From a phage, in NCBI GenBank assembly GCA_032986305.1, contig GCA_032986305.1_3672.1: DNA of 64,000 nucleotides; one strand, 5' to 3'. A program made the translations under genes and the position numbers. Below are positions 1-64,000 of the stretch, one piece after another. The number at the start of each line of letters is the position of its first letter. Position 1 is the stretch's first letter. The notes below the pieces were generated by a model, which saw only the letters and a program-made list of their open reading frames with translations, was not told the origin of the DNA and did not search any database.

Positions 1-372
1 ACGATCCACAACCCTGTCTGGAACATCATGAATGCTTTTATTACCATGGCGGTTTTCAACCACGATCACGGTATAACTATACCCATGACTGATCGCCATG
101 TCAATATATTCTTGCACATATTTTTCTTTTGTAAACGTATTACTTACCACGATACGGTCGTATCCCATACGCATCATATCTTCTACGTTATCTTTGCACC
201 ATTTTGCTGCAAGTGTTACTTTACTTGCATCCCAGTTATAATTTCCATCATCGTCGTACCAGAACATGTCGTTCTCAAAATGTGGATACAGACCGTCTAA
301 AGATAGCGCATTTGCCAGTGTTGATTTGCCAGACCCTGGCAGACCACGCACGATATATAGCATTTTAGACAT
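1..372 (-). CDS. P-loop kinase, polynucleotide-kinase-like (3' end outside window)
   Basis: Minus-strand ORF starting ATG at 372 with RBS GGAGG; N-terminus MSKMLYIVRGLPGSGKSTLANAL has Walker A; divergent from RNA ligase. Confidence 0.55.
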   Translation of the reverse strand, partial: MSKMLYIVRGLPGSGKSTLANALSLDGLYPHFENDMFWYDDDGNYNWDASKVTLAAKWCKDNVEDMMRMGYDRIVVSNTFTKEKYVQEYIDMAISHGYSYTVIVVENRHGNKSIHDVPDRVVDR

Positions 373-472
373 AGTAATCCTCCGTTTTAATTTCAACGAT
401 AGTATACCTGACTGTTTTGTTAATTTCAAGTGTTGACACTAGGTTATTTGTGTGGCAGGATAGGCTGACAAA

Positions 473-1408
473 ATGACAAATGAGGAACGTATGATGAAGT
501 ATTTTAATGCAGATGACCTAGTAGACAAAGGTCTTGTAACCAGTCGGTATTATCCAGATCTTGGATTAAAGATCTATAAATATGCCAGAAAAGTATTCTA
601 CAACAATCTGTGGCATTTGTCTCCGCGTTTACTGGAGTGCCGAGGTATTGTTGTTGGCAATGAGGGGAATGTTGTGGCATGGCCTTTCACAAAAGTATTC
701 AACTTAGGAGAAAACTCCACCAACCTACCGGACAGTAAACTTGTTACTGCGGTAGAGAAAAAGAACGGATTCCTTGGTGTGGTATCATCTCATAAAGGTG
801 AACTATTGTTCTCAACAACCGGATCTCTTGATTCTCCATATTGTAACCTCACAAAGGAAACCATCCAAGAGCAATGTGGTAATTTAGATCTTATCAAGAA
901 GGTTATGGGCAATGAAAACATGACATTCATGTTTGAAATTTGTCACCCTTCAGATCCGCATATTGTTCAGGAAGATCATGGCGCATATTTGATAGGTTGC
1001 AGATATAATGATTCTGGAATAATGCTGCCAGAAGCAGCTTTAGATGGGATTGCCAAATACCTTGGCGCAAAACGTCCTCACACTGTGCGTGAAATTCCGT
1101 TCAGCTATGCAAAAGAATTGGCTGCAGAAACAAGAGGTGAAGGGTATATGATTCGTAAGCCTTACTACCCTTATGATCTGCAGCTGAAGATCAAGTCTCC
1201 ATACTATCTGGCACGGAAGGCCGTAATGAGGGGTAAAGCTTGGAAGATTTGGGATGATGATATCTTTAAACGTGTTGACGAAGAGTTTTACGGCATGGTA
1301 AACTTCATTCGTAGCAATTACACAGAAGATGTGTGGAACTGCCTACTGGAGCAGGAACGCAGGGAGATACTCGACCACTATTTCCACAACGAGGACTATA
1401 TGCAATGA
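473..1408 (+). CDS. RNA ligase (T4 Rnl1-like)
   Basis: 311 aa; LECRGIVV segment matches recalled T4 RnlA ALECRGIMF region. Confidence 0.7.
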   Translation: MTNEERMMKYFNADDLVDKGLVTSRYYPDLGLKIYKYARKVFYNNLWHLSPRLLECRGIVVGNEGNVVAWPFTKVFNLGENSTNLPDSKLVTAVEKKNGFLGVVSSHKGELLFSTTGSLDSPYCNLTKETIQEQCGNLDLIKKVMGNENMTFMFEICHPSDPHIVQEDHGAYLIGCRYNDSGIMLPEAALDGIAKYLGAKRPHTVREIPFSYAKELAAETRGEGYMIRKPYYPYDLQLKIKSPYYLARKAVMRGKAWKIWDDDIFKRVDEEFYGMVNFIRSNYTEDVWNCLLEQERREILDHYFHNEDYMQ

Positions 1409-2538: not shown

Positions 2539-3252
2539 ATGCTGAATACTAAACTGATCGACAACCTGGAAAAACTGTCTCAGCCTGAAAACTACCTTTG
2601 GTCTGCCAACTGGGTGGAAAACTGGAACCGTGTGGCAGCTAAGGTGAAAAAATCATACACACCATTCGAATTACAGCTTAGCTTCATTGAGGAAGAGTTC
2701 AATGAAGTTTTGGAAGAGCTGGAGAAAGGTGATGGTGGAGATCACTTGCTAAAAGAGGCCTGCGATCTTCATGTTGTCACAAGTTATGCCGCTTATCTTG
2801 TTAATGACAATCACGAAAAGTGGTCAAACCTGTTTGATAATCCACGAGGTATTAAGTTCAAGATTGGTGAGTTCTATGATACACTGATCGCTGCGAAAAA
2901 CACCTCTAAGCAAAGAGCGTCTGCTTACCGCTTAGCAGAGTTGTCAACAGCTTTGCTGTTCCAGCTTCGCGGAGATGTGTGCGGGATGATGCGTAAGGTT
3001 CTCAAATCGAATGACAGCAAGTTTGCACGGGTCAACCATCTACGGTATTCACACGGTGCCAGTGCAGATATGCCTGCTGAACAACTCATCGAGTTGGAGA
3101 TTAAAGATCTTGAGCGACGCTTTGATGGTCGATATGAAGGTTTTGTTGCTAAGGAAGAATTCTACAACGGTAATAAAGTTATCATATTCCTTGACAGTAA
3201 AGGTAAGATCATGAAGCCTTCAAGCTTCAAGGATGTAACAGGGTATATTTAA
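2539..3252 (+). CDS. MazG-like nucleotide pyrophosphohydrolase (putative)
   Basis: EEEFNEVLEELEKGDGGDHLLKEACDL resembles MazG E-x2-E ... E-x2-D motif. Confidence 0.5.
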   Translation: MLNTKLIDNLEKLSQPENYLWSANWVENWNRVAAKVKKSYTPFELQLSFIEEEFNEVLEELEKGDGGDHLLKEACDLHVVTSYAAYLVNDNHEKWSNLFDNPRGIKFKIGEFYDTLIAAKNTSKQRASAYRLAELSTALLFQLRGDVCGMMRKVLKSNDSKFARVNHLRYSHGASADMPAEQLIELEIKDLERRFDGRYEGFVAKEEFYNGNKVIIFLDSKGKIMKPSSFKDVTGYI

Positions 3253-3258
3253 CAACAT

Positions 3259-3285
3259 AGCCGGGATCACCCGGCTTTACTTGTT
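3259..3285 (+). terminator. intrinsic terminator
   Basis: AGCCGGG-atca-CCCGGCT hairpin followed by T-rich tail. Confidence 0.5.
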
Positions 3286-3624
3286 GTGGAAAGTATGCAA
3301 GTGAGGCAGATAGTTATGTACAAGCACTCTAGAGATCTTGAAAACGATGCTGTGTTTGGGGATCAGATGAAAGAGTTGGTTAAACTCATAGGCAGGATAG
3401 AGGATAAGTTTGACACTAAGATCTACATCGACAGCAAAGTATTCAACCACAAAATATGGACAAATCTGTGTGTTGGACTACATGGAGATAAAGATGTTGT
3501 AAATTTAGTTGTAATTAAGTTCATAGTGTGGCAGAATAAGACTATACGTTATTCCGATCCACACTTACTTGTTTATCCTATAAAAGACCTACTACAGAAA
3601 GAGGACTGCAATGCCGTTATTTAA
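3286..3624 (+). CDS. hypothetical protein
   Basis: 112 aa ORF, co-oriented. Confidence 0.4.
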   Translation: MESMQVRQIVMYKHSRDLENDAVFGDQMKELVKLIGRIEDKFDTKIYIDSKVFNHKIWTNLCVGLHGDKDVVNLVVIKFIVWQNKTIRYSDPHLLVYPIKDLLQKEDCNAVI

Positions 3625-19118: not shown

Positions 19119-19397
19119 ATGAGCTGTGAAAAATCTTTTTTCTTTATTATTTACGGTAAAGATAACTGCCCACATTGTGTAAGAGCAAAAGAATTTGCAG
19201 TCAGTAAAGGTCTGCCTTTTGTATATAAGACACTTGGCGAGGGTTACACAAAAGAAGAGCTTATTGAGAAGTGCAGTCCAATCGTACCCAGAACGTTGCC
19301 GCAGATCTTCTTAGAAAGCAATCTTGAAAGTGCCCATATAGGCGGTGCCGACGATTTCATCTCTTTTGTTAAGAATGGTTTTGGAGAGAAAAAGTGA
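19119..19397 (+). CDS. glutaredoxin/NrdH-like redoxin
   Basis: 92 aa; CPHC redox motif; between nrdB and nrdD. Confidence 0.7.
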   Translation: MSCEKSFFFIIYGKDNCPHCVRAKEFAVSKGLPFVYKTLGEGYTKEELIEKCSPIVPRTLPQIFLESNLESAHIGGADDFISFVKNGFGEKK

Positions 19398-20254
19398 AAG
19401 TTGTAAAACGGGACGGTAGAGAAGAGGTCTATAACGGAATTAAGGTGATCAAGGCGGCAGAGTCCGCCTTACTTGAGTCTGGACATACTGAAGAAGAAGC
19501 TTACCGGATCGCCTGCGCGGTTAATGAAGTTGTTGCTAACAATCTACCAACCGACCAGTGCACGATCTCTGTAAAAAATATCCATATCCTTGTTGAAGAC
19601 GCTCTTATGGATATGGGTTTAAAATGTGCAGCCAGAGAATACATCCAGTATAGGCAGACAAGAGATAATAACAGAGAGGCAGGTGGAAAACTGCTTGCAG
19701 ATATTAGTGGCTTCTTGGATCGCACTTGTGATGAATTTACAAAAGAAAACGCAAATAAGCCTACCAATCATGTACACACTCATCGTGACCTGCTTGCAGG
19801 CATCCTTAGCAAACACCTTGCATCAACACAGATCCTGCCAGACCGTGTCTCAGAAGAGCACAATAAAGGCTTCATCCATGTGCATGATCTTGACTACTTG
19901 ATCAGTCCGTTAACAAACTGTTGTTTGGTAAATTATCCAGATATGTTGGAAAACGGATTCAACATTGGTAACGCCCATGTCAGTAAGCCGAAGTCAATAG
20001 GGGTTGCAACAACAATCCTTAGCCAAATTTCTAGTGCAGTAGCTAGTGCTCAGTATGGGGGTCAGACTATGAGCCATATTGATCATTATCTGGCACAGTA
20101 TGCTGAGGCGACCTATGAGAAGAATCTTAAATTTTGCCAGGAACACTGGTTGCCAGATGCTGAGACTGTTGCAATGCAAATGACAGATAAAGACGTATTT
20201 GACAGCATGCAGACTTTGCTCTATCAAATCAATACGTTAACCTCTGTCAACGGT
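19394..20254 (+). CDS. nrdD: anaerobic ribonucleotide reductase NrdD, exon 1
   Basis: GFIHVHDLDY...TNCCLV...GNAHVSKPKSIGVATT matches recalled T4 NrdD; ends ...NTLTSVNG then in-frame stop. Confidence 0.8.
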
Positions 20255-20511
20255 TAACAAACTGGCCGTTTTAAAACTCTGCTAACCTCAGTATGAGGGG
20301 TCAGCTGATCGCTGGCTAACGGGGAACGCTAAGGCGAAAGCTATGCCAATCCCGTGACTAGCTTCACAAGGAGTGAGGCGGTTGTAACGACTAACCTTTT
20401 GGTGTAGGGATTATGGAAGATTCCGAAACGCAGAGGTCTGATTAAGAATCACACGGTGTGATTTCAGGCAAGAGATAGTCTGGCCTTGTGGAAACATAAG
20501 GGTGGGGACCG
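20255..20511 (+). mobile_element. group I-type intron 1 in nrdD (ORF-less, 257 nt)
   Basis: Interrupts NrdD between SVNG and QTPF; upstream exon ends in U, intron ends in G. Confidence 0.6.
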
Positions 20512-20811
20512 CAAACCCCTTTTATCACATTAAGTTTAGGTCTGGACACCTCAGTATTTGGTAGAATGATTACCAAAAACTACTTGAAAGTCCACAAAAT
20601 GGGTCTTGGTGAAGAATGTATCACACCTGTGTTCCCTAAAGTGCTGTTCTTCCTAGAAGAGGGTGTCAACATGAACCCTGGAGATCCTAACTATGATTTG
20701 AAACGTTTAGCTCTGGAATGCTCTGCAGAGCGGATTTATCCTGACTTTGTTTCTGTTCCACTAAATCGTAAAGTGACAGGCTCGACAGATGGCAAAGTAA
20801 CGAGCATGGGT
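20512..20811 (+). CDS. nrdD: NrdD exon 2
   Basis: QTPFITLSLG...ITPVFPKVLFFLEEGVN...DPNYDLKRLALEC continues the T4 NrdD alignment. Confidence 0.7.
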
Positions 20812-21573
20812 AAACTATAACTGCTCATGTAAAATCTATCTAAACGGGGAAACTCCAGAACGGACAATCCCGTGCTAAACGTAACAGAACTCCTGACCAA
20901 GAGGAGTCCTGAAATGAGAAAACAAATTCGTGATTTTGAAGGTTATGAAATTGACGAGATGGGCAATGTTTATTGCACCCGCTACGAAAATGAAAGAATT
21001 ATTCATTCGTGGGAAGAGATAAACACAGGTTACCGTCTTGTTAGGATACGCAAGAACAAAAAGACTGTTTGCCTAAGGGTTCACAGACTTGTTGCTGAAG
21101 CGTTCTTACCAAATCCAGACAATTTACCCTATGTTAAGCACAAAGGGGACAACAGGAAAGATAACAGTGTATACAACCTTGAGTGGGGAGCTTGCCCAGA
21201 CAATACGCAAGAAGGATACAACAACAACTGTTATGCTTTTTACACAAGATGCCACGGTGTGAAAGCCACCAACAAATTAACTGGTGAGGTTTTCCACTTT
21301 AAAAGTCTGAGATGTTGTGCTGATGTTTTAGGAGTGGATAGAAAAAGAATATCTGCTATCCTGAAACGTGGTGCGCCTAATAACTATGATTACGAGTTCT
21401 GTTACGAAATGCCTAACGACTAACCGTGATGAATGTAGCGGTGTAGGGTGTAAGCCGATGACACTCGAAATGGTAGACACACTAAGTGTGAAGATATAGT
21501 CTGATCTGCATGGGAACATGCAGCAGCACGTAAAGGTGCGGGGGTGGACTTGCGAACCACCCTGAACATAATG
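20812..21573 (+). mobile_element. group I-type intron 2 in nrdD carrying HNH endonuclease ORF (762 nt)
   Basis: Exon 2 ends ...TSMG (last nt U); exon 3 resumes CRSFLS; intron ends in G. Confidence 0.6.
20914..21423 (+). CDS. HNH homing endonuclease (intron-encoded)
   Basis: RBS AGGAG 7 nt before ATG; VHRLVAEAFLPNP...HKGDNRKDNSVYNLEW typical of phage HNH endonucleases. Confidence 0.7.
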   Translation: MRKQIRDFEGYEIDEMGNVYCTRYENERIIHSWEEINTGYRLVRIRKNKKTVCLRVHRLVAEAFLPNPDNLPYVKHKGDNRKDNSVYNLEWGACPDNTQEGYNNNCYAFYTRCHGVKATNKLTGEVFHFKSLRCCADVLGVDRKRISAILKRGAPNNYDYEFCYEMPND

Positions 21574-22536
21574 TGTAGAAGTTTCTTATCGAAATATAGC
21601 GACCCTGTAACAGGCGAGGAGAAATACCTTGGCAGATTTAACTTAGGCGTTGTTAGCCTTAACCTGCCAATGATTGCGGCAAAAGCCAAGACGGAAGGTG
21701 TTGATTTCTTTGCAGTTCTTGACGAATACTTGGATCTTGCATACGAGGCTCACCTTGTAAGGGTTAATCGTCTAAAAGGAACAAAGGCAGGGCAGAACCC
21801 CATCATGTGGTGTGAAGGCGCTCTTGCTCGCCTGGATCCTGAAGAGAGTGTTGATAAACTCTTCTATGACGGGTACGCTTCCATCAGTATTGGGTATATT
21901 GGTGTGTATGAAACCTGTCAGATTTTGGGTAGAGAGGGTGACAAGGCTTTAGCTCTTGGAATCCTTCAGCACATGAGAGATGCTTGTGAGCGATACAAGA
22001 AGGAAAGTAGACTAGCGTTTAGCTTGTACGGCACTCCTTCTGAGAGTCTATGCTATAAAGCTGCAACCTGTCTGGATCGTGAATATCCGGAAGTGTTGAA
22101 GCACGAGCATGAATATCTCACCAACAGTTTCCATCAGCCAGTATGGATAAATAGCTCTCCTTTTGATAAGTGGGAGTATGAGGAAGGTTTTGCTATGATC
22201 TCCTCTGGTGGCAACATCGGATACGTAGAAACACCTAACCTGAAAAACAACCTGGATGCTTTAGAGGCTCTTGTTGACTTCGGGTATAAACATATTATGT
22301 ACTTCGGTATAAACCAGCCTGTTGACCAATGCTTCAAGTGCGGTTTCCAGGGAGAATTTAAAGCCTCTCCAAGAGGTTTTATATGCCCTTGTTGTGGAAA
22401 CCATGAGGAGGGAACGATCAGTGTAATTAGACGTGTGTCTGGATACCTTTCCAGTCCTAACTCCCGTCCTTACAATAAAGGTAAGCAAGCGGAAGTTATA
22501 GAACGGGTTAAGCACTATGGAAGTTGTAGTTGCTGA
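21574..22536 (+). CDS. nrdD: NrdD exon 3 (glycyl-radical domain)
   Basis: C-terminal Zn site CPCCG and glycyl radical motif RRVSGYL. Confidence 0.8.
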   Translation, partial: CRSFLSKYSDPVTGEEKYLGRFNLGVVSLNLPMIAAKAKTEGVDFFAVLDEYLDLAYEAHLVRVNRLKGTKAGQNPIMWCEGALARLDPEESVDKLFYDGYASISIGYIGVYETCQILGREGDKALALGILQHMRDACERYKKESRLAFSLYGTPSESLCYKAATCLDREYPEVLKHEHEYLTNSFHQPVWINSSPFDKWEYEEGFAMISSGGNIGYVETPNLKNNLDALEALVDFGYKHIMYFGINQPVDQCFKCGFQGEFKASPRGFICPCCGNHEEGTISVIRRVSGYLSSPNSRPYNKGKQAEVIERVKHYGSCSC

Positions 22537-22602
22537 TACTTGACAGAAGCCACAAGGATGTGGCATACTTGGCTAATCTATGAGAACCAAGAGGGATCAA
22601 AG

Positions 22603-23559
22603 ATGCCTAGAGGAAAACAACTTACAACTGAAGAATTTACAAAAAGAGCTAGAGAAGTACATGGCGATAAATATGACTATTCAAAAACCGTATATAAAAC
22701 TGCTAAAAGTAAGGTTGTAATTGTATGCCCTGTTCATGGTGAGTTTACGCAGATCGCTGGACATCATATCCTTGACGGTAGTGGGTGTCCTAAGTGTGGT
22801 AGAGTGCCAGTAGGCAATAAGCTTAGAAACGATTCTAGTGATATTATCAAAAAATTTGTAAAAATCCACGGTGACACCTATGATTATTCTAAGGTTGAAT
22901 ATGTTAACTATAAAACTCCTGTAAAAATTGTATGCCCTGAGCACGGAGTGTTCTTGCAATCCCCATCTAACCATTTGAAAGGCCAAGGGTGCCCTGAGTG
23001 TAGTAAACTCATTAGCGCAGCAAAAAGGAATAAAGGCCCTGAATTCATAGAAAGAGCCAAAGAAATCCATGGCGATAAATATGACTACTCTTTTGTAGAT
23101 TATATGACTTGCGAAGATAAGGTAGAGATAATCTGCAACACTTGTGGAAATCACTTCACCCAGACACCTTCTTGCCACCTGTCTGGTCGTGGATGCCCTA
23201 AATGTGCCAAAAACGGTTTCTTATCTCACAACTATGGGAAGCTTTACCTCATGGTTGATAACTTAGAAGCGCCAACACTTATGAAGATTGGTGTGAGCGT
23301 CAATGTAGAAGCGAGGAAGGGAAGGATATTAAGAGCATCCAAGAAGGCTGGTGCAGGTATTTATGATCTCCACATAGTAAAAACATGGGGCGGATCGACT
23401 GAAAACATGCTGAGTGTAGAAAAATCTGTGCATGAAGCCTTCAATAAGTATAAAATAAACTTCTCTAAAGTATTTAGTGGAAGCACTGAATTCTTTCACT
23501 ACAGACCTGAAGTGTTTAGCATAGTGGAAGCAGTATACAAAGAGATCTGTGGTAAATGA
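22603..23559 (+). CDS. T5orf172/GIY-YIG-like protein with three tandem Zn-binding modules (free-standing homing endonuclease candidate)
   Basis: Three repeats of HGDxYDYS...C..HG.F.Q....HL.G.GCP.C, then KLYLMVDN...KIGVS...R core. Confidence 0.55.
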   Translation: MPRGKQLTTEEFTKRAREVHGDKYDYSKTVYKTAKSKVVIVCPVHGEFTQIAGHHILDGSGCPKCGRVPVGNKLRNDSSDIIKKFVKIHGDTYDYSKVEYVNYKTPVKIVCPEHGVFLQSPSNHLKGQGCPECSKLISAAKRNKGPEFIERAKEIHGDKYDYSFVDYMTCEDKVEIICNTCGNHFTQTPSCHLSGRGCPKCAKNGFLSHNYGKLYLMVDNLEAPTLMKIGVSVNVEARKGRILRASKKAGAGIYDLHIVKTWGGSTENMLSVEKSVHEAFNKYKINFSKVFSGSTEFFHYRPEVFSIVEAVYKEICGK

Positions 23560-59454: not shown

Positions 59455-59768
59455 TGATCGGTCTCCTTCTTGTTAAGTCTGAATACTGCAATAATAGCAT
59501 TCCCAAGGTGCAGTGTCAAATCATTTCCAAGATACCACAACATTCCACGGTCATCTTTAATGAAAGGGTAACAATCTGGTGCCTTCCAGACATTGTACAC
59601 TTTCCCAACCTGAAAGAAATCAGGCCCTGTTGGGATTTTGGTGCCAGGCCACACTTGAGATACCTGAACACACTCCACCTGCATAATAACAGGAATGGTC
59701 ATGGATGTAAATGTTTTTGTTGGCTCTACTACCATAAAAGTCTCCTCTTTGCTCAACAACACTTCCAT
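59451..59768 (-). CDS. hypothetical protein
   Basis: Start set at MEVLL... to avoid overlapping polymerase exon. Confidence 0.35.
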   Translation of the reverse strand: MEVLLSKEETFMVVEPTKTFTSMTIPVIMQVECVQVSQVWPGTKIPTGPDFFQVGKVYNVWKAPDCYPFIKDDRGMLWYLGNDLTLHLGNAIIAVFRLNKKETDQ

Positions 59769-59784
59769 GTGTTGATAGTTTACA

Positions 59785-60138
59785 TTAGTGACAATCACCC
59801 CAGTTACGACCACACAAGTATTCACCTGTGATCTGGAACGGGACTCCCATCATTTTAGAAGCTTGCCAGAAGCAATGCACCACCATTTCACCCACAGGGC
59901 TCCAGATAAGTTCAAGCTTTCCGTCATCGTTCAGGATAGGATCGTACACCGTGTTTCCGTCTCTGTCAACCACCTCGTTTCCGTTTTCATCCTTGCGTGC
60001 CTTTTTGTACTTATGACCGTCGAACACATGAAGTTTGGCTTCCTGCTCTGCCTTAAATGCTTCCAGTTCTTCAATTGTGTCGAAGGTGTACACAGTCTTA
60101 TACTTAGGTGTGTCAGGGACCTGAAGTTGGTACTCATC
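59785..60138 (-). CDS. DNA polymerase (family A, T7 gp5-like), exon 2
   Basis: Begins at motif C (H)DEYQLQV; ends ...GRNWGDCH resembling recalled T7 gp5 C-terminus GPNWAICH. Confidence 0.6.
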   Translation of the reverse strand, partial: DEYQLQVPDTPKYKTVYTFDTIEELEAFKAEQEAKLHVFDGHKYKKARKDENGNEVVDRDGNTVYDPILNDDGKLELIWSPVGEMVVHCFWQASKMMGVPFQITGEYLCGRNWGDCH

Positions 60139-60414
60139 CAATAGTTCAGGTAGGTCGTTAAGCTACCCCGCACCATTACGTGCATAGCCATACGTTTTCA
60201 CGTAGGATCGGACCATCTCATATTCCTATGATAAGCAACCACAGGAATCCTCCCATTTCGACCGCACTTGCTGGTCTACTTCCTTTCGGAATGGCCTCTG
60301 AGCGTTCGCTCTTTTGAGCGCTTCGTTGCGGATTACCTTGCCATAAGGTTTAGGCTTCCCGCAGTTAAAGAGGTTATTCGACATAGATTACTCTATGAAG
60401 CCACAATGTTATTT
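60139..60414 (-). mobile_element. group I-type intron in DNA polymerase gene (ORF-less, about 276 nt)
   Basis: Separates ...IIYYH from DEYQLQV at motif C; exon 1 ends in U, intron ends in G. Confidence 0.5.
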
Positions 60415-62838
60415 ATGGTAATAAATAATACGACGAACACCTTCATCGTACCACCCACGCTTCACCATTTGGTGGTGCATGAGTATCCCAACTAAGTCAC
60501 ACAGCGATGCACCACCATTCTGTTGGTATGCATTAAGTAAAGAGTGTTTAGATCGGGTCCAGATGGCATGACCATCAAAAGAGTAGATAAACTTCTTACC
60601 CGTTGCTTCCCAGAATTTCTCCAGATCCTCTTTACGCCCCTTAAGACCAGGGTTGGCATCCCAAAGTGCATCGATTACCCTTTGTCCCAACTCTGGAGAG
60701 ATGTCCAGCATATCTGCAACTTTATCTTTTTGTGCCCCGTACATAACCCCATACGTGATAGGTTTACCGTCGTTACGGGACACCTCTCTGCCTGCTACTT
60801 TTGTATATGCCTCAGCATTGTTTTGGTGTGCGTCTCCGTTACTTACAACATCGTAATACAGGCCGTTGTCGAACTCAAAGGCACCCCAAGCCCCGATAAG
60901 CTGCTCTAAGTTGGACCCGTCGATACCGATCTCAAAGTATCCTGGAGGAACACCCCACAAGCTACGCATCTCTTTACCCATAACCACTTTAGGAGAGGGT
61001 TTAGGCATGTTTGCACAAATACTGTGTTTCTGTCTGGAAGTGTTTGTTAATCCAGAGCTTTTAGCAGGAAGCTTATGGTCAATCTTCAAGCGTGGGTGAT
61101 TAAGAAGACCAGTATCAACCTTATCCTCCTTGATCGGATCAAGGACCGATCTGCGGTTTCGCAATGATAACCACAAGACGATATCTTTAGCCATCTCTCC
61201 GTTCAATTTTTCAAGATTCGGACATAGGTGTCCAAACGTATCTTTCAGTTGCGGAGAAGTAATAAGTGCCCTAGCTTTTCTACGTATTTTCCTGAATACT
61301 TCCTTTTTAATCCTTTCGGAGTTAGGAAAGCTTCGGAACTTGTGCACAGTTGTCTGGAACTTAGCATCAGTTTTGTTCCAGAAGTTGATAATTAGGTCAC
61401 AATACTCTGACTCCAAAAGCTCGTCCATATATGCATATACTCGTGCATCAACATCTGCATCAGGTAAAGCTTTCTTCTTGCTGTCTTTAGTTACATCCTT
61501 AGTTCTCCACATTGTCGGAAGCCAGCCAGCACTGATCAGGTATCGCTTAATGTCGTCCTGGTTGCTGATTTTCATAGGTATCTTGCAGTCCGGCATTCGC
61601 TTCTGCTGTAGATCACTTATTGCCTGATCCATCAACTCTTTAGGTAAAGGGTGTGGTGTGGAAGTGCCCTTAATATAGCCTCTCAAGAAATCAGCCATCT
61701 TATCGGGGTCTTTGCATCCCATCTCTTCACACCATTTTATCCCCATCTTGCTGACATCTCCTGTAGAGGTAAATGCTCTCTTAGGCGGGGCTTTGAACTC
61801 TAAAGCGCTCATGTCTACAGGATATCCAAGCTTATCTTTTAACCATTTCCAACCATTATTAGAGATTGTCCCGTCTTGGTTAAACGGCTTTTCAGGGAAC
61901 TTGGGCCGCTGAGACATTGACAGCTCTTTTAAAGGCAGTTGTGGTTCAACACGATCAGCGATTTCTTTCATCCACGCATCGCAACGGTCACGTAAAGCAA
62001 TAGCTCCATCTATGTCGAAATATACGCCCTGACGGGCCTGCAGCTCCATCAGGAAGTGCTGCAGCATACCTCGGCGCAATGCGTTCTTCCAGGTGATCTT
62101 CTTGAACCCTTTTGGCTTCTCTTTGGCAGGATCGTACATAAAGTTCTGCATGTCAGATTTGCCGTAGAATACACCTTTTGATTCCGCTACCAGCTCTTTC
62201 CAGAGCAACTCCTGGATGATAACGTCCTCGAATACACGATCCACATACTTCCACAACGGAAGATCGCGCCAGTCATCAATTTGAACTTTCTGGTTACCAA
62301 GGGCGTAGCCCCATGCCATAAGGCCGTGAGGACCAACAGGCTGCATTTTCTTAGTAACCGGGTTGAATACAGCGTCCGGACAACCTTTTGGTAAAGGGCG
62401 ATCAGGCCACAAGATTCGGCTCATCGCCAACGTATCAAACAGGTTAACCTGGTGGTCGTTGATAGTCCCCATACATTTAGGATCACGGAACATATCAAAA
62501 TGAATACCGGATAATCTCTCCATCAGCATAAAGTCATAACTATAGCAGTTATGGCAGTTCAAAGCTGTTGGTGACCAGTCGGAATTGCCTGTAAGCCAAC
62601 CTTCCAACTCCGAAAAATCTGCTATGCGAACTTCAAAATCTTTATAAAGAGCTTTCTTTGCCAGAATAAAGTTCTTAGCCTTCTCTATATCCTCCTCGGA
62701 GTAGTGTGTGCGGTCATTTAGAGGGAGGAACAGCATAAAACGGTTCTTATTCAGCTCTTTAAACAGGCCGCAGTGATAATAAAGATCTGGGTCTTCCAAA
62801 AGCCCGGAGGCCTCAAAATCGAAGCTATACATGCTCAT
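60415..62838 (-). CDS. DNA polymerase (family A, T7 gp5-like), exon 1
   Basis: N-terminal exo FDFEASGLLEDPDLYYHCG like T7 VSDIEANALLESVTKFHCG; motif A GIDGSNLEQL; motif B RNDGKPITYGVMYG. Confidence 0.8.
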
Positions 62839-62896
62839 AAAGTGTTCTCCTTAAAGGGGAGGCGGTTGTACTACCCCTCCCACTCTTGGTTAAACA

Positions 62897-64000
62897 TTAA
62901 AAAGGCGTTTCATCATCCTCAAAACCAGGGACAGGGTCAGAGGACGGATCATCGTACTGGAGGTCTTCCTGCGTGTCAACAGGCTTAACAGTAGGAGTTA
63001 CAACCTTATCAGCCACAACCTTGCCCATAGGTGTTTCTACAACTGCATGCTCCTGATCCTCAAACATAGCCTGAGGTCTCCAAACAACCTCCCCACCTTC
63101 TCCATCTGTAAACATTTGCATTTCTTTGTCCCAGTACCAATTACTGGCATCATGGAACTTACCTGTATGTGGGTCCATAACCAAAGTGTCTGCAATACCC
63201 AATGTTTTTGCTGGGCGGTTTTTAAGACCTACTAAACGGACACGCCCACGAGAACGATCCACCATTTCTTCGGCCTCAACACCTATGACTACCCAACTCA
63301 ACTGTTCAAGCCCAGCCGATCCTCGCAAATTCTCTTTTCGCACAGGATACCAGAAAGGTAATGGGTTACCATCCTTGTCCTTAGGAGGCACAATCTCTGT
63401 ACGTTTGAGGTGAGCGATCACCAAGATAAACACGTTAAACTGCTTACAAAACGCAGCCAGCTGAGTCATAGCCATGTCCAGTTCTTTTCGCTCATCTTTA
63501 ACATTAAGCCCTGAAATTACCATAGACAGGTGATCCAGCACAATATAGCGACAATGATACAGGCAGACCATTTGCTTAAGCTTGGTAATCAACTCGTCCA
63601 CTGGAATAGACCCGAAATGTTTGAACACTTTGATTTTTCCAGCTTTTGCCCATGATTGGTGAATCTCTGCGTGTTCTTGATCAGTTAAAAACTGGCTAGG
63701 ATCTTCAACAAACTCTTTAACATCAAACCCTAGCTGGTTTGCATACAAGGAGTTAATTGCTTCCTCTGGGTCCTCCTCAAGATGGATCATGCATAGACGA
63801 TCATCCTCTTCATAGTCATCGGCCTTCGGGCATGTCGGGTCCATCAAGTATCTTGCAATACAATGTTCCAGTTTTTTAGCTACAGTTGTTTTACCGCCCC
63901 CTGATGGCCCTGTAAGCATTACGAGTGTCCCTTTGTGCAAGCCTTTTAGCATTTTTTGCAGTTTTGGAAACTCTGCGCTGATATCTACCCCGTTGGAAGT
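62897..64000 (-). CDS. primase-helicase, helicase domain (T7 gp4-like; 5' end outside window)
   Basis: Walker A GPSGGGKT; acidic C-terminal tail ending ...FEDDETPF; frame stays open to window edge. Confidence 0.7.
   Translation of the reverse strand, partial: TSNGVDISAEFPKLQKMLKGLHKGTLVMLTGPSGGGKTTVAKKLEHCIARYLMDPTCPKADDYEEDDRLCMIHLEEDPEEAINSLYANQLGFDVKEFVEDPSQFLTDQEHAEIHQSWAKAGKIKVFKHFGSIPVDELITKLKQMVCLYHCRYIVLDHLSMVISGLNVKDERKELDMAMTQLAAFCKQFNVFILVIAHLKRTEIVPPKDKDGNPLPFWYPVRKENLRGSAGLEQLSWVVIGVEAEEMVDRSRGRVRLVGLKNRPAKTLGIADTLVMDPHTGKFHDASNWYWDKEMQMFTDGEGGEVVWRPQAMFEDQEHAVVETPMGKVVADKVVTPTVKPVDTQEDLQYDDPSSDPVPGFEDDETPF

Follow-up and report, generated by a model that had tools for sequence, protein, structure and literature searches.

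The family-A DNA polymerase gene of the phage studied here is, with high confidence on our part, interrupted between the His and Asp-Glu codons of catalytic motif C by a group I intron that contains no ORF and is predicted to be self-splicing. The window, by which we mean the whole stretch of 64,000 nucleotides that was analysed, belongs to an rV5-like Vequintavirus coliphage, and the polymerase gene spans 3054 nt of its minus strand (62838..59785) in the order exon 1, intron, exon 2:

60415..62838, minus strand: exon 1 of the polymerase, 808 codons, ending ...IIYYH, last base U60415 (ORF list, in-silico splice, T7 gp5 alignment, Pfam)
60139..60414, minus strand: group I intron, 276 nt, subgroup IA2-like, no ORF, starting AAAUAA... 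and ending ...CUAUUG with terminal G60139 (Rfam, Murica gap, covariation, MFE fold)
60409..60411, minus strand: in-frame UAA stop, intron nucleotides 4-6, where translation of unspliced RNA ends just inside the intron
59785..60138, minus strand: exon 2, 117 codons plus stop, DEYQLQV...GRNWGDCH, starting with the catalytic Asp-Glu of motif C

A first-pass annotation of this DNA had noted that an 809-aa ORF terminates in ...IIYYHK-stop where motif C is expected, and that the frame resumes some 276 nt further on as DEYQLQV. Both observations stand: the ORF list gives a minus-strand ORF at 60409..62838 with the terminus ...RRIIYYHK-stop, the frame is regained at 60138, and the insertion measures exactly 276 nt. 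In-silico splicing yields a protein of 925 aa in which ...YYHDEYQL aligns with ...AWVHDEIQV of T7 gp5, placing the Asp-Glu pair at T7 D654/E655 and the insertion site between T7 H653 and D654, as the reading of a T7-like (family A) polymerase split at motif C had it. Along with the HDE of motif C, the spliced polymerase has the palm and fingers motifs of family A (T7-like). T7 gp5 structures match residues 633-813 (E=7e-16), as far as HDEYQL/HDEIQV. Pfam DNA_pol_A covers residues 620-822 of the spliced protein (E=9e-8) with a score just below the curated cut-off (31.9 against 34.3 bits), and the polymerase is therefore a divergent family-A enzyme. The C-terminus had also been called T7-like. 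The frame does reach GRNWGDCH, with the stop at 59785, but the likeness amounts to this short terminal motif, and a comparison of exon 2 alone with the PDB gave no significant hit to the end of the T7 polymerase. The evidence that exon 2 really encodes the polymerase C-terminus comes instead from homologues in other phages, where it is contiguous with exon 1 (Murica, JES2013, HdK5, GAP31, ICP1 and others). Upstream of the gene we considered a truncated primase/helicase (ORF listed from 63952) and rejected it: the reading frame stays open as far as the edge of the window, the rV5 gene is 2079 nt long, and the ORF simply runs off the window.

The placement of the splice junction can be read directly from intron-less alleles. 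Alignment to the intron-less Murica allele leaves a single gap of 276 nt, at exactly 60414..60139 with identical flanks, and Murica reads ...IIYYH/DEYQLQV... without a break. The peptide across the junction is contiguous and 100% identical in Murica, JES2013 and HdK5; the predicted tryptic peptide of the ligated exons is IIYYHDEYQLQVPDTPK, and the predicted exon-exon junction in the spliced RNA joins TATTACCAT to GATGAGTAC. Boundaries at 60415/60139 had earlier been proposed from the rule of a U before the intron and a G at its end, and they are the ones recovered here: U60415 forms the U•G pair of P1, the last intron base is G60139, and all homologues end ...UG immediately before GAUGA. At the other end, homologues start with AAAUAA, or with AAGUAA or AAACAA.

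The inserted RNA also has a clear identity. Rfam RF00028 matches over its full length (model 1-253) at 60424..60189 with 64.7 bits, where the gathering score is 50, and with E=4e-14 calculated over all 64 kb of the window, confirming the suggestion of a group I intron, and is the only Rfam match at gathering threshold at the polymerase intron locus. Might the insertion nonetheless have arisen by chance, or by a mis-assembly that broke the ORF? Its recurrence at identical coordinates in numerous genomes sequenced independently of one another, together with this E value and the clean Murica gap, already refutes such an artefact, to which we assign practically no weight. An intein was likewise rejected, given an in-frame stop 3 nt into an insert that is RNA-structured. 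The intron was previously described as ORF-less, and so it appears: Pfam gives no match for the sole ORF within it (52 aa, 60226..60384), which lies over the ribozyme core, so that no intron-encoded homing endonuclease was found in the 276-nt copy, and we accept neither this ORF nor one of 86 aa in or across the intron as a gene, for lack of a family match or on account of overlap with core helices.

The helices that make up the ribozyme, all on the minus strand, are as follows:

60401..60418: P1, in which CCAU/AA (60418..60413) pairs with the internal guide UUGUGG (60406..60401) (Rfam alignment, pair table)
60307..60363: P4-P5-P6 domain, with the P6 hairpin CGCUC-AAAA-GAGCG at the position of the HNH ORF in relatives
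60211..60296: P7 domain, GGCCA (60296..60292) with UGGUC (60215..60211) (pair table, covariation)
60291..60222, inside P7: P7.1 (60291..60280), a G-U-A linker, P7.2 (60276..60260), P3' (60254..60249) and P8 (60248..60222)
60149..60206: P9, P9.1 and P9.2, a 3' extension past the Rfam model, 100% paired, with two-sided changes in 5, 1 and 4 pairs, respectively

To judge this structure we aligned, with MAFFT, seven diverged homologous introns from Escherichia, Avunavirus and Vibrio phages, each of which sits at the same codon boundary and scores 65-91 bits in Rfam. Across this set 93.4% of cells are paired, compared to 34-40% in controls with slid partners; two-sided changes affect 30 pairs, compared to 1-7 in these controls; and the covariation score was reached by none of 500 shuffles. 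P1, where the 5' splice site is identified by the U60415•G60404 wobble, is invariant in all seven homologues; in P2, P3, P4, P7, P7.2, P8, P9, P9.1 and P9.2 pairing is complete (100%) and two-sided changes occur. For P6 the MAFFT alignment gives 57-81% pairing. P5 (33% paired) and P7.1 (73% paired) receive little support from it, probably because MAFFT misaligns regions of variable length; in the Vibrio copies P7.1 is poorly aligned or absent. The structure modelling that had been called for earlier independently recovers P1-P6, P7.1, P7.2, P8 and P9-P9.2 in the MFE fold (z=-2.7). As to P10, the window allows 4 bp between GAUG of exon 2 and CAUU (60410..60407); reading from the alignment, 3 bp are conserved in homologues and the fourth pair is not.

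Introns of subgroup IA2 are recognized by P7.1 and P7.2 lying between P7 and P3' and linked by G-U-A (PMC3428280). The window copy has UUCC-GAAA-GGAA, then GUA, then GACC...GGUC, with P7.2 backed by covariation and P7.1 by the fold only. P7.1 and P7.2 joined in this manner indicate subgroup IA2.

Taken with its homology to an intron that is known to splice (see below), these features lead us to infer that the window copy splices, and does so by the chemistry of its intron family. In this scenario the polymerase gene would be transcribed into a single pre-mRNA. Once the 276-nt ribozyme had folded (P1-P9.2), attack by an external guanosine after U60415 would release the 3'-OH of exon 1. This in turn would attack after the terminal G60139, and ligation of ...UAUUACCAU to GAUGAGUAC... 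would produce the mRNA for a 925-aa polymerase with its HDE motif intact. On RNA that remained unspliced, ribosomes would be expected to halt at the UAA three bases into the intron. The window copy would thus belong to a family of mobile introns as a member without an ORF; in relatives this ribozyme also holds an HNH gene, in a loop extending from P6.

How does this intron compare to those already described? LL12 (MH491969) and rV5 (DQ832317/NC_011041) carry an identical 276-nt intron at the same site, within the same 3054-nt gene span as in the window, although the exons of LL12 differ from those of the window by 3-4%. The LL12 record gives a two-piece joined CDS with the note 'intron-interrupted gene', at a splice site predicted by homology only, and the accompanying paper speaks of a polymerase gene 'disrupted by predicted intron sequences' (PMC6658697). 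In the rV5 record the intron is unannotated, with two 'hypothetical protein' CDSs placed in and around it; neither record holds a group I label, a structure or a demonstration of splicing. Such a demonstration comes from Pectobacterium phage CB7, a Certrevirus and hence of a different genus, whose HNH-carrying intron was shown to splice in vivo by RT-PCR and Sanger sequencing (PMC7344957). The CB7 intron (CB7_51/CB7_49) occupies the same site codon for codon (IIYYHK* / DEYQLEV), and its ribozyme core is homologous to that of the window (~75% identity over 73% of the query; 46.6 bits in Rfam). It differs in being 687 nt long with a 127-aa HNH ORF, where the window copy has 276 nt and no ORF, and the CB7 gene has a second intron further upstream.

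These comparisons bear on the possibility that the insertion stays in the RNA and that the two ORFs are translated separately, their products assembling into an active enzyme. Aeromonas phage Aeh1, in which NrdA is reported to be split by mobE (PMC7344957), provides a precedent for a split enzyme, and an HNH-containing insertion in another CB7 gene did not splice (PMC7344957). Most GenBank records annotate two separate CDSs, and an in-frame TTG at 60141 directly precedes exon 2. However, this TTG lies just 3' of the P9.2 hairpin with no Shine-Dalgarno-like sequence upstream, and counts in a promoter/terminator scan of 59500..63100 were no higher than in shuffles, giving no sign of separate exon 2 expression. 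A split at this point would part His from Asp-Glu within the catalytic motif, a complete ribozyme fold with compensatory changes would not be expected to persist without splicing, and the homologous CB7 intron does splice. We therefore regard separate translation as very improbable and retain the reading of a spliced group I intron.

With H881-D882-E883 as the HDE of E. coli Pol I, the insertion site in the window would probably be site 881, the position given for the introns of phages ΦI and W31. These introns, reported in 2004 from T7-like phages, self-splice, belong to IA2, carry an HNH ORF in P6a and sit at Pol I site 881 (PMC3428280). ΦI and W31 (AY769989/AY769990) differ from the window in their podovirus hosts, a true T7 polymerase and the presence of an HNH ORF; the HNH-bearing relative FFH2 likewise has its ORF in P6. 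Other phage group I introns are known from replication and nucleotide-metabolism genes of phage T4 (td, nrdB, nrdD/sunY) and from the DNA polymerase genes of Bacillus phage SPO1 and cyanophage Pf-WMP3; they lie at highly conserved catalytic sequence, often with an HNH or GIY-YIG endonuclease and often with a stop codon just inside (PMC3428280). Polymerase introns elsewhere in the gene are reported at Pol I 674 (SPO1 and Pf-WMP3) and 676 (phiL7) (PMC3428280), and the T4, SPO1 and Pf-WMP3 introns differ from that of the window in insertion site and host gene. Separately, we note two more group I introns in nrdD in the window.

Among relatives, the site is found empty or filled with an intron of 276 nt, ~328 nt or ~843 nt, the latter bearing an HNH gene within P6. 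Of 117 records, 60 were sampled evenly: 29 were empty, 10 had the 276-nt intron, 3 the ~328-nt intron and 18 the ~843-nt intron, and this presence/absence polymorphism extends to close relatives: Murica, LL12 and JLBYU08, all labelled Vequintavirus murica, exhibit three different site states. FFH2 has a longer stem and a 168-aa HNH ORF in place of the P6 hairpin.

One might ask whether the window copy is a decayed intron that has lost its activity along with its endonuclease gene, leaving the polymerase gene defective. It has no ORF, its P5, P6 and P7.1 are the shortest among the Escherichia-phage variants, and its 64.7 bits in Rfam are the lowest score among ORF-less copies. Yet no fewer than 23 isolated phages that propagate share the identical 276-nt sequence, the viable isolates rV5, LL12 and navn among them; all core helices are intact, both exons are open and conserved, and near the locus, the region covered here, no second polymerase gene was seen. 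Decay is consequently an account that we consider hardly credible, and we continue to view the insertion as an intact intron.

rV5, LL12, navn and the window share the 276-nt intron with 100% identity, whereas their polymerase exons differ by 2.8-3.9%. At that exon divergence one would expect 8-11 substitutions over 276 nt, and none is observed; exon mismatches start 18-67 nt from the splice sites. This contrast might hint that the ORF-less intron is now moving between Vequintavirus genomes rather than persisting as a passive remnant, an idea that we consider rather unlikely. Since the intron lacks a nuclease of its own, spread would need one in trans, with the HNH protein of the 843-nt variant and a free-standing HNH just upstream of the polymerase gene in some relatives as candidates. 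If true, this would constitute 'collaborative homing' with very short co-conversion tracts.

Overall, the polymerase intron is genuine but ordinary: close relatives already have it annotated or described, and splicing has been demonstrated for a homologue. It raises no new biological question, since SPO1 and ΦI/W31 already established that group I introns occur in phage polymerase genes at conserved catalytic motifs. Its main value lies in annotation. Most rV5-like GenBank records, among them the RefSeq entry of the type phage rV5, divide the polymerase between at least two CDSs and add spurious 'hypothetical proteins' within and around the ribozyme, when the correct product is one 925-aa enzyme. 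Beyond annotation, the site offers a natural series within one phage genus (empty, two ORF-less introns, an HNH-bearing intron) that could serve studies of how homing endonuclease genes are gained and lost.

The DNA at 59700..62900 of the window matches 136 phage records by megablast, the best at 96-98% identity; nearly all are rV5-like E. coli myoviruses of the genus Vequintavirus, and 115 have a query coverage of 80% or more. Here the family-A DNA polymerase gene lies on the minus strand, just downstream of the primase/helicase gene, with the following reading frames.

Reading frames at the polymerase locus
60409..62838, minus strand: 809-aa ORF, ending ...GVRRIIYYHK-stop (ORF list and sequence)
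59785..60141, minus strand: 118-aa ORF, (M)DEYQLQV...GRNWGDCH-stop (ORF list and sequence)
60226..60384 and 59931..60191, minus strand: two small ORFs in or across the intron, equivalent to rV5 'hypothetical protein' CDSs (ORF 226/227; 3018..3471 in the rV5 record, L001)

The first-pass annotation had read the two long frames, one stopping at ...IIYYHK and the other resuming with DEYQLQV and running to GRNWGDCH, as a T7-like polymerase split at catalytic motif C by an insert of about 276 nt with a U before it and a G at its end. All the sequence facts it stated are correct. Joining 62838..60415 to 60138..59785 in silico removes 276 nt, keeps the frame and yields a 925-aa product with the junction ...IIYYH/DEYQLQV..., where U60415 is the base preceding the cut and G60139 the final base removed. 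When the spliced product is compared with T7 gp5 structures (E = 7e-16), the alignment crosses the junction and sets YYHDEYQL opposite AWVHDEIQV, so that the Asp-Glu of exon 2 corresponds to T7 D654/E655 and the split does fall at motif C.

Searching by tblastn with a 168-aa junction-spanning peptide, we find it uninterrupted in 504 nt, at 100% identity, in Murica, JES2013, HdK5 and others, and contiguous in the more distant GAP31, Klebsiella phages, Vibrio ICP1 and Pseudomonas PAK_P5-like phages. When the window gene is aligned at the nucleotide level with the intron-less Murica gene, a single 276-nt gap opens at exactly 60414..60139, and the flanks are identical from -90 to +29. At the sequence level, the exact boundaries are proved by such empty sites, and they coincide with those inferred earlier (60415/60139).

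What kind of intron is this? The whole 64-kb window, scanned against Rfam at gathering thresholds, gives one hit of any family, and it lies on the insert: RF00028 (group I intron), 60424..60189, minus strand, full-length (model 1-253). Its score is 64.7 bits, where the gathering score is 50 (E = 4e-14). In the Rfam model alignment P1 pairs CCAU/AA (exon/intron) with UUGUGG, so that U60415, where the protein had put the splice site, carries the conserved U•G wobble. Between P7 and P3' there are 34 nt more than in the Rfam model, comprising two hairpins (UUCC-GAAA-GGAA and GACC...GGUC) and a G-U-A linker; P7.1 plus P7.2 with a G-U-A linker is the signature of subgroup IA2 (Pf-WMP3 paper, PMC3428280). 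The 50 nt from the end of the Rfam model to the 3' splice site contain two further hairpins, P9.1 and P9.2. A minimum free energy (MFE) fold of a 296-nt stretch, blind to the other data, recovers P1-P6, P7.1, P7.2, P8, P9, P9.1 and P9.2, and is more stable than shuffled sequences (z = -2.74). Family match and structure modelling, the latter proposed in the first-pass annotation, both uphold its group I claim. Its description of the intron as ORF-less also stands: the only ORF inside, of 52 aa, has no family match.

With the intron sequence as query, matches are found in 118 phage records. The diverged ORF-less copies that we compared (JLBYU08 and JEP1 from Escherichia, ~328 nt; Avunavirus 18-1-2; three Vibrio phages) are every one full-length group I introns at 65-91 bits, all inserted after ...Y-H and before D-E...; in each the exon ends in UUACCAU and the intron in a G followed by GAUGA. 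Helices written on the window row and projected onto a MAFFT alignment show standard pairs in 93.4% of cells, compared with 34-40% in slid controls, in which the 3' partners are shifted 1-3 columns; on this measure the projected structure has a built-in advantage over the slid versions, because it derives from one of the aligned sequences. Less exposed to this bias is the count of two-sided changes, which occur in 30 of 68 pairs versus 1-7 for the slid versions; the observed covariation score was not reached by any of 500 shuffles. Pairing is 100%, and compensatory changes occur, in P2, P3, P4, P7 (the pseudoknot), P7.2, P8, P9, P9.1 and P9.2; P1 does not vary across the aligned homologues; and alignment support is weak for P5, P6 (partly) and P7.1, which are length-variable and badly aligned by MAFFT (unrefined).

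Vibrio phage 424E50-1 (L011) carries two polymerase group I introns only about 97 nt apart (44..293 and 391..654; 93 and 65 bits), the second at the same H/DE site as in the window.

A UAA stop lies in frame three bases into the intron. The locus is best explained, we infer, by a polymerase pre-mRNA that splices itself in the ordinary group I manner: the intron would excise itself and restore motif C, and on unspliced RNA ribosomes would halt at the UAA. The strongest indirect evidence for splicing is that viable laboratory phages such as rV5 carry an identical copy, that compensatory changes preserve the fold, and that the CB7 homologue at the same site splices in infected cells, as seen by RT-PCR and Sanger sequencing (PMC7344957). 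Alternatively, the polymerase might be built from two separate polypeptides. This is unlikely: exon 2 has no ribosome-binding sequence ahead of it, its sole start codon in frame, TTG 60141, consists of the final three intron bases, just 3' of P9.2, and a ribozyme would not stay conserved in a never-spliced spacer. The intron is real and, in all likelihood, functional. The two small ORFs are almost certainly spurious gene calls, since 60226..60384 is contained within the ribozyme and 59931..60191 runs from the ribozyme 3' end into exon 2.

To describe occupancy of the site we took an even sample of 60 of 117 Vequintavirus-like records, sorted by the length that a spliced-exon query spans in each record: 29 are empty, 10 have 276 nt, 3 have ~328 nt and 18 have ~843 nt. 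Murica, LL12 and JLBYU08 have three different intron states under one label, Vequintavirus murica. Unlike the FFH2-type and CB7 copies, the window intron has no HNH ORF. The FFH2-type insert (843 nt, same site) matches the 329-nt intron of JLBYU08 at 98-100% identity except in a 528-nt segment, where a longer stem (GGUGUAGUU...AACUACACC) takes the place of the short P6 hairpin and a 168-aa HNH ORF, with a weak Pfam HNH_3 match, is looped out. In Pectobacterium phage CB7 the intron shares the window's insertion site and measures 687 nt; its 127-aa HNH, CB7_50, sits between CB7_51 (...IIYYHK-stop) and CB7_49 (...LLDEYQLEV...).

In navn and FFH2 (L003 and L004, 563..1297 in each) the primase/helicase and polymerase genes are separated by a free-standing HNH gene of 244 aa, which is absent from the window (62839..62896), rV5 and LL12; an analogous CB7 gene (CB7_54) lies at the polymerase gene 5' end. 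Sixteen unannotated 'Campylobacter phage' records (MG0656xx, host C. jejuni; H1-H5 and others), 96-98% identical to the coliphage locus, appear to be Vequintavirus coliphages deposited as Campylobacter phages.

The window's intron shows no substitutions relative to that of rV5, LL12 or navn, whereas exons differ by 2.8-3.9%, with the nearest mismatches 18-67 nt from the splice sites. At the exon rate, 8-11 differences would be expected in 276 nt (P ~1e-4 each, the comparisons not being independent). This identity could stem from strong constraint or from recent lateral spread of the nuclease-less intron, a reading that we rate as unlikely. Synonymous changes at exon 2 +6, +9 and +12 (window 60133, 60130, 60127; GAUGAAUAUCAGCUU versus GAUGAGUACCAACUU) accompany the FFH2/JLBYU08-type intron; they may stem from co-conversion or make the target site immune to the HNH enzyme.

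Group I-like sequence also occurs at nrdD.

Features at nrdD
19394..22536, plus strand: nrdD (anaerobic ribonucleotide reductase), three exons (19394..20257, ~20500..20817, 21544..22536)
20245..20501, plus strand: first gap, sub-threshold RF00028 match, 29 bits, ORF-less
21418..21523, plus strand: second gap, sub-threshold RF00028 match, 35 bits
20872..21423, plus strand: 183-aa HNH / I-HmuI-NUMOD-like ORF within the second gap
22540..23559, plus strand: 339-aa ORF directly 3' of nrdD; DUF723, treble-clef zinc finger, T5orf172/MUG113 (GIY-YIG-related)

The nrdD pieces abut on the Pfam NRDD profile (1-154, 153-263, 263-562) and the gaps hold these sub-threshold matches; two group I introns therefore likely separate the exons, and the window probably holds three, of which only the polymerase intron exceeds the Rfam gathering score. 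The 3' end of the second nrdD intron (GCACGUAAAGGUGCGGGGGUGG...) is similar to the polymerase intron's P9.1-P9.2. Introns in nrdD go unmentioned in the rV5 paper (PMC3606486). Within the window, the 183-aa ORF is the only HNH relative found, and it is 31% identical to the HNH of the FFH2-type polymerase intron; from its domains, the 339-aa ORF may be a free-standing homing endonuclease.

In substance, the polymerase intron is already known. H881-D882-E883 of Pol I we take to be the HDE of motif C. Site 881, where PMC3428280 places the IA2 introns of the T7-like phages ΦI and W31 (HNH ORF in P6a), would then be the window intron's site. The genome announcement of LL12, whose intron is identical to the window's, calls the polymerase gene 'disrupted by predicted intron sequences' (PMC6658697), and its GenBank record has a two-piece CDS of the same 3054-nt span ('intron-interrupted gene; intron splice site predicted based on homology'). 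In rV5 records the gene is split, with small hypothetical proteins annotated in and around the intron; the rV5 paper gives the polymerase as 775 aa and discusses introns in the terminase gene only (PMC3606486). Added here are the explicit assignment to group I and subgroup IA2, the structure and its covariation, the empty-site boundaries and the census of allele states, whose patchy site occupancy is the pattern that a mobile intron family produces.
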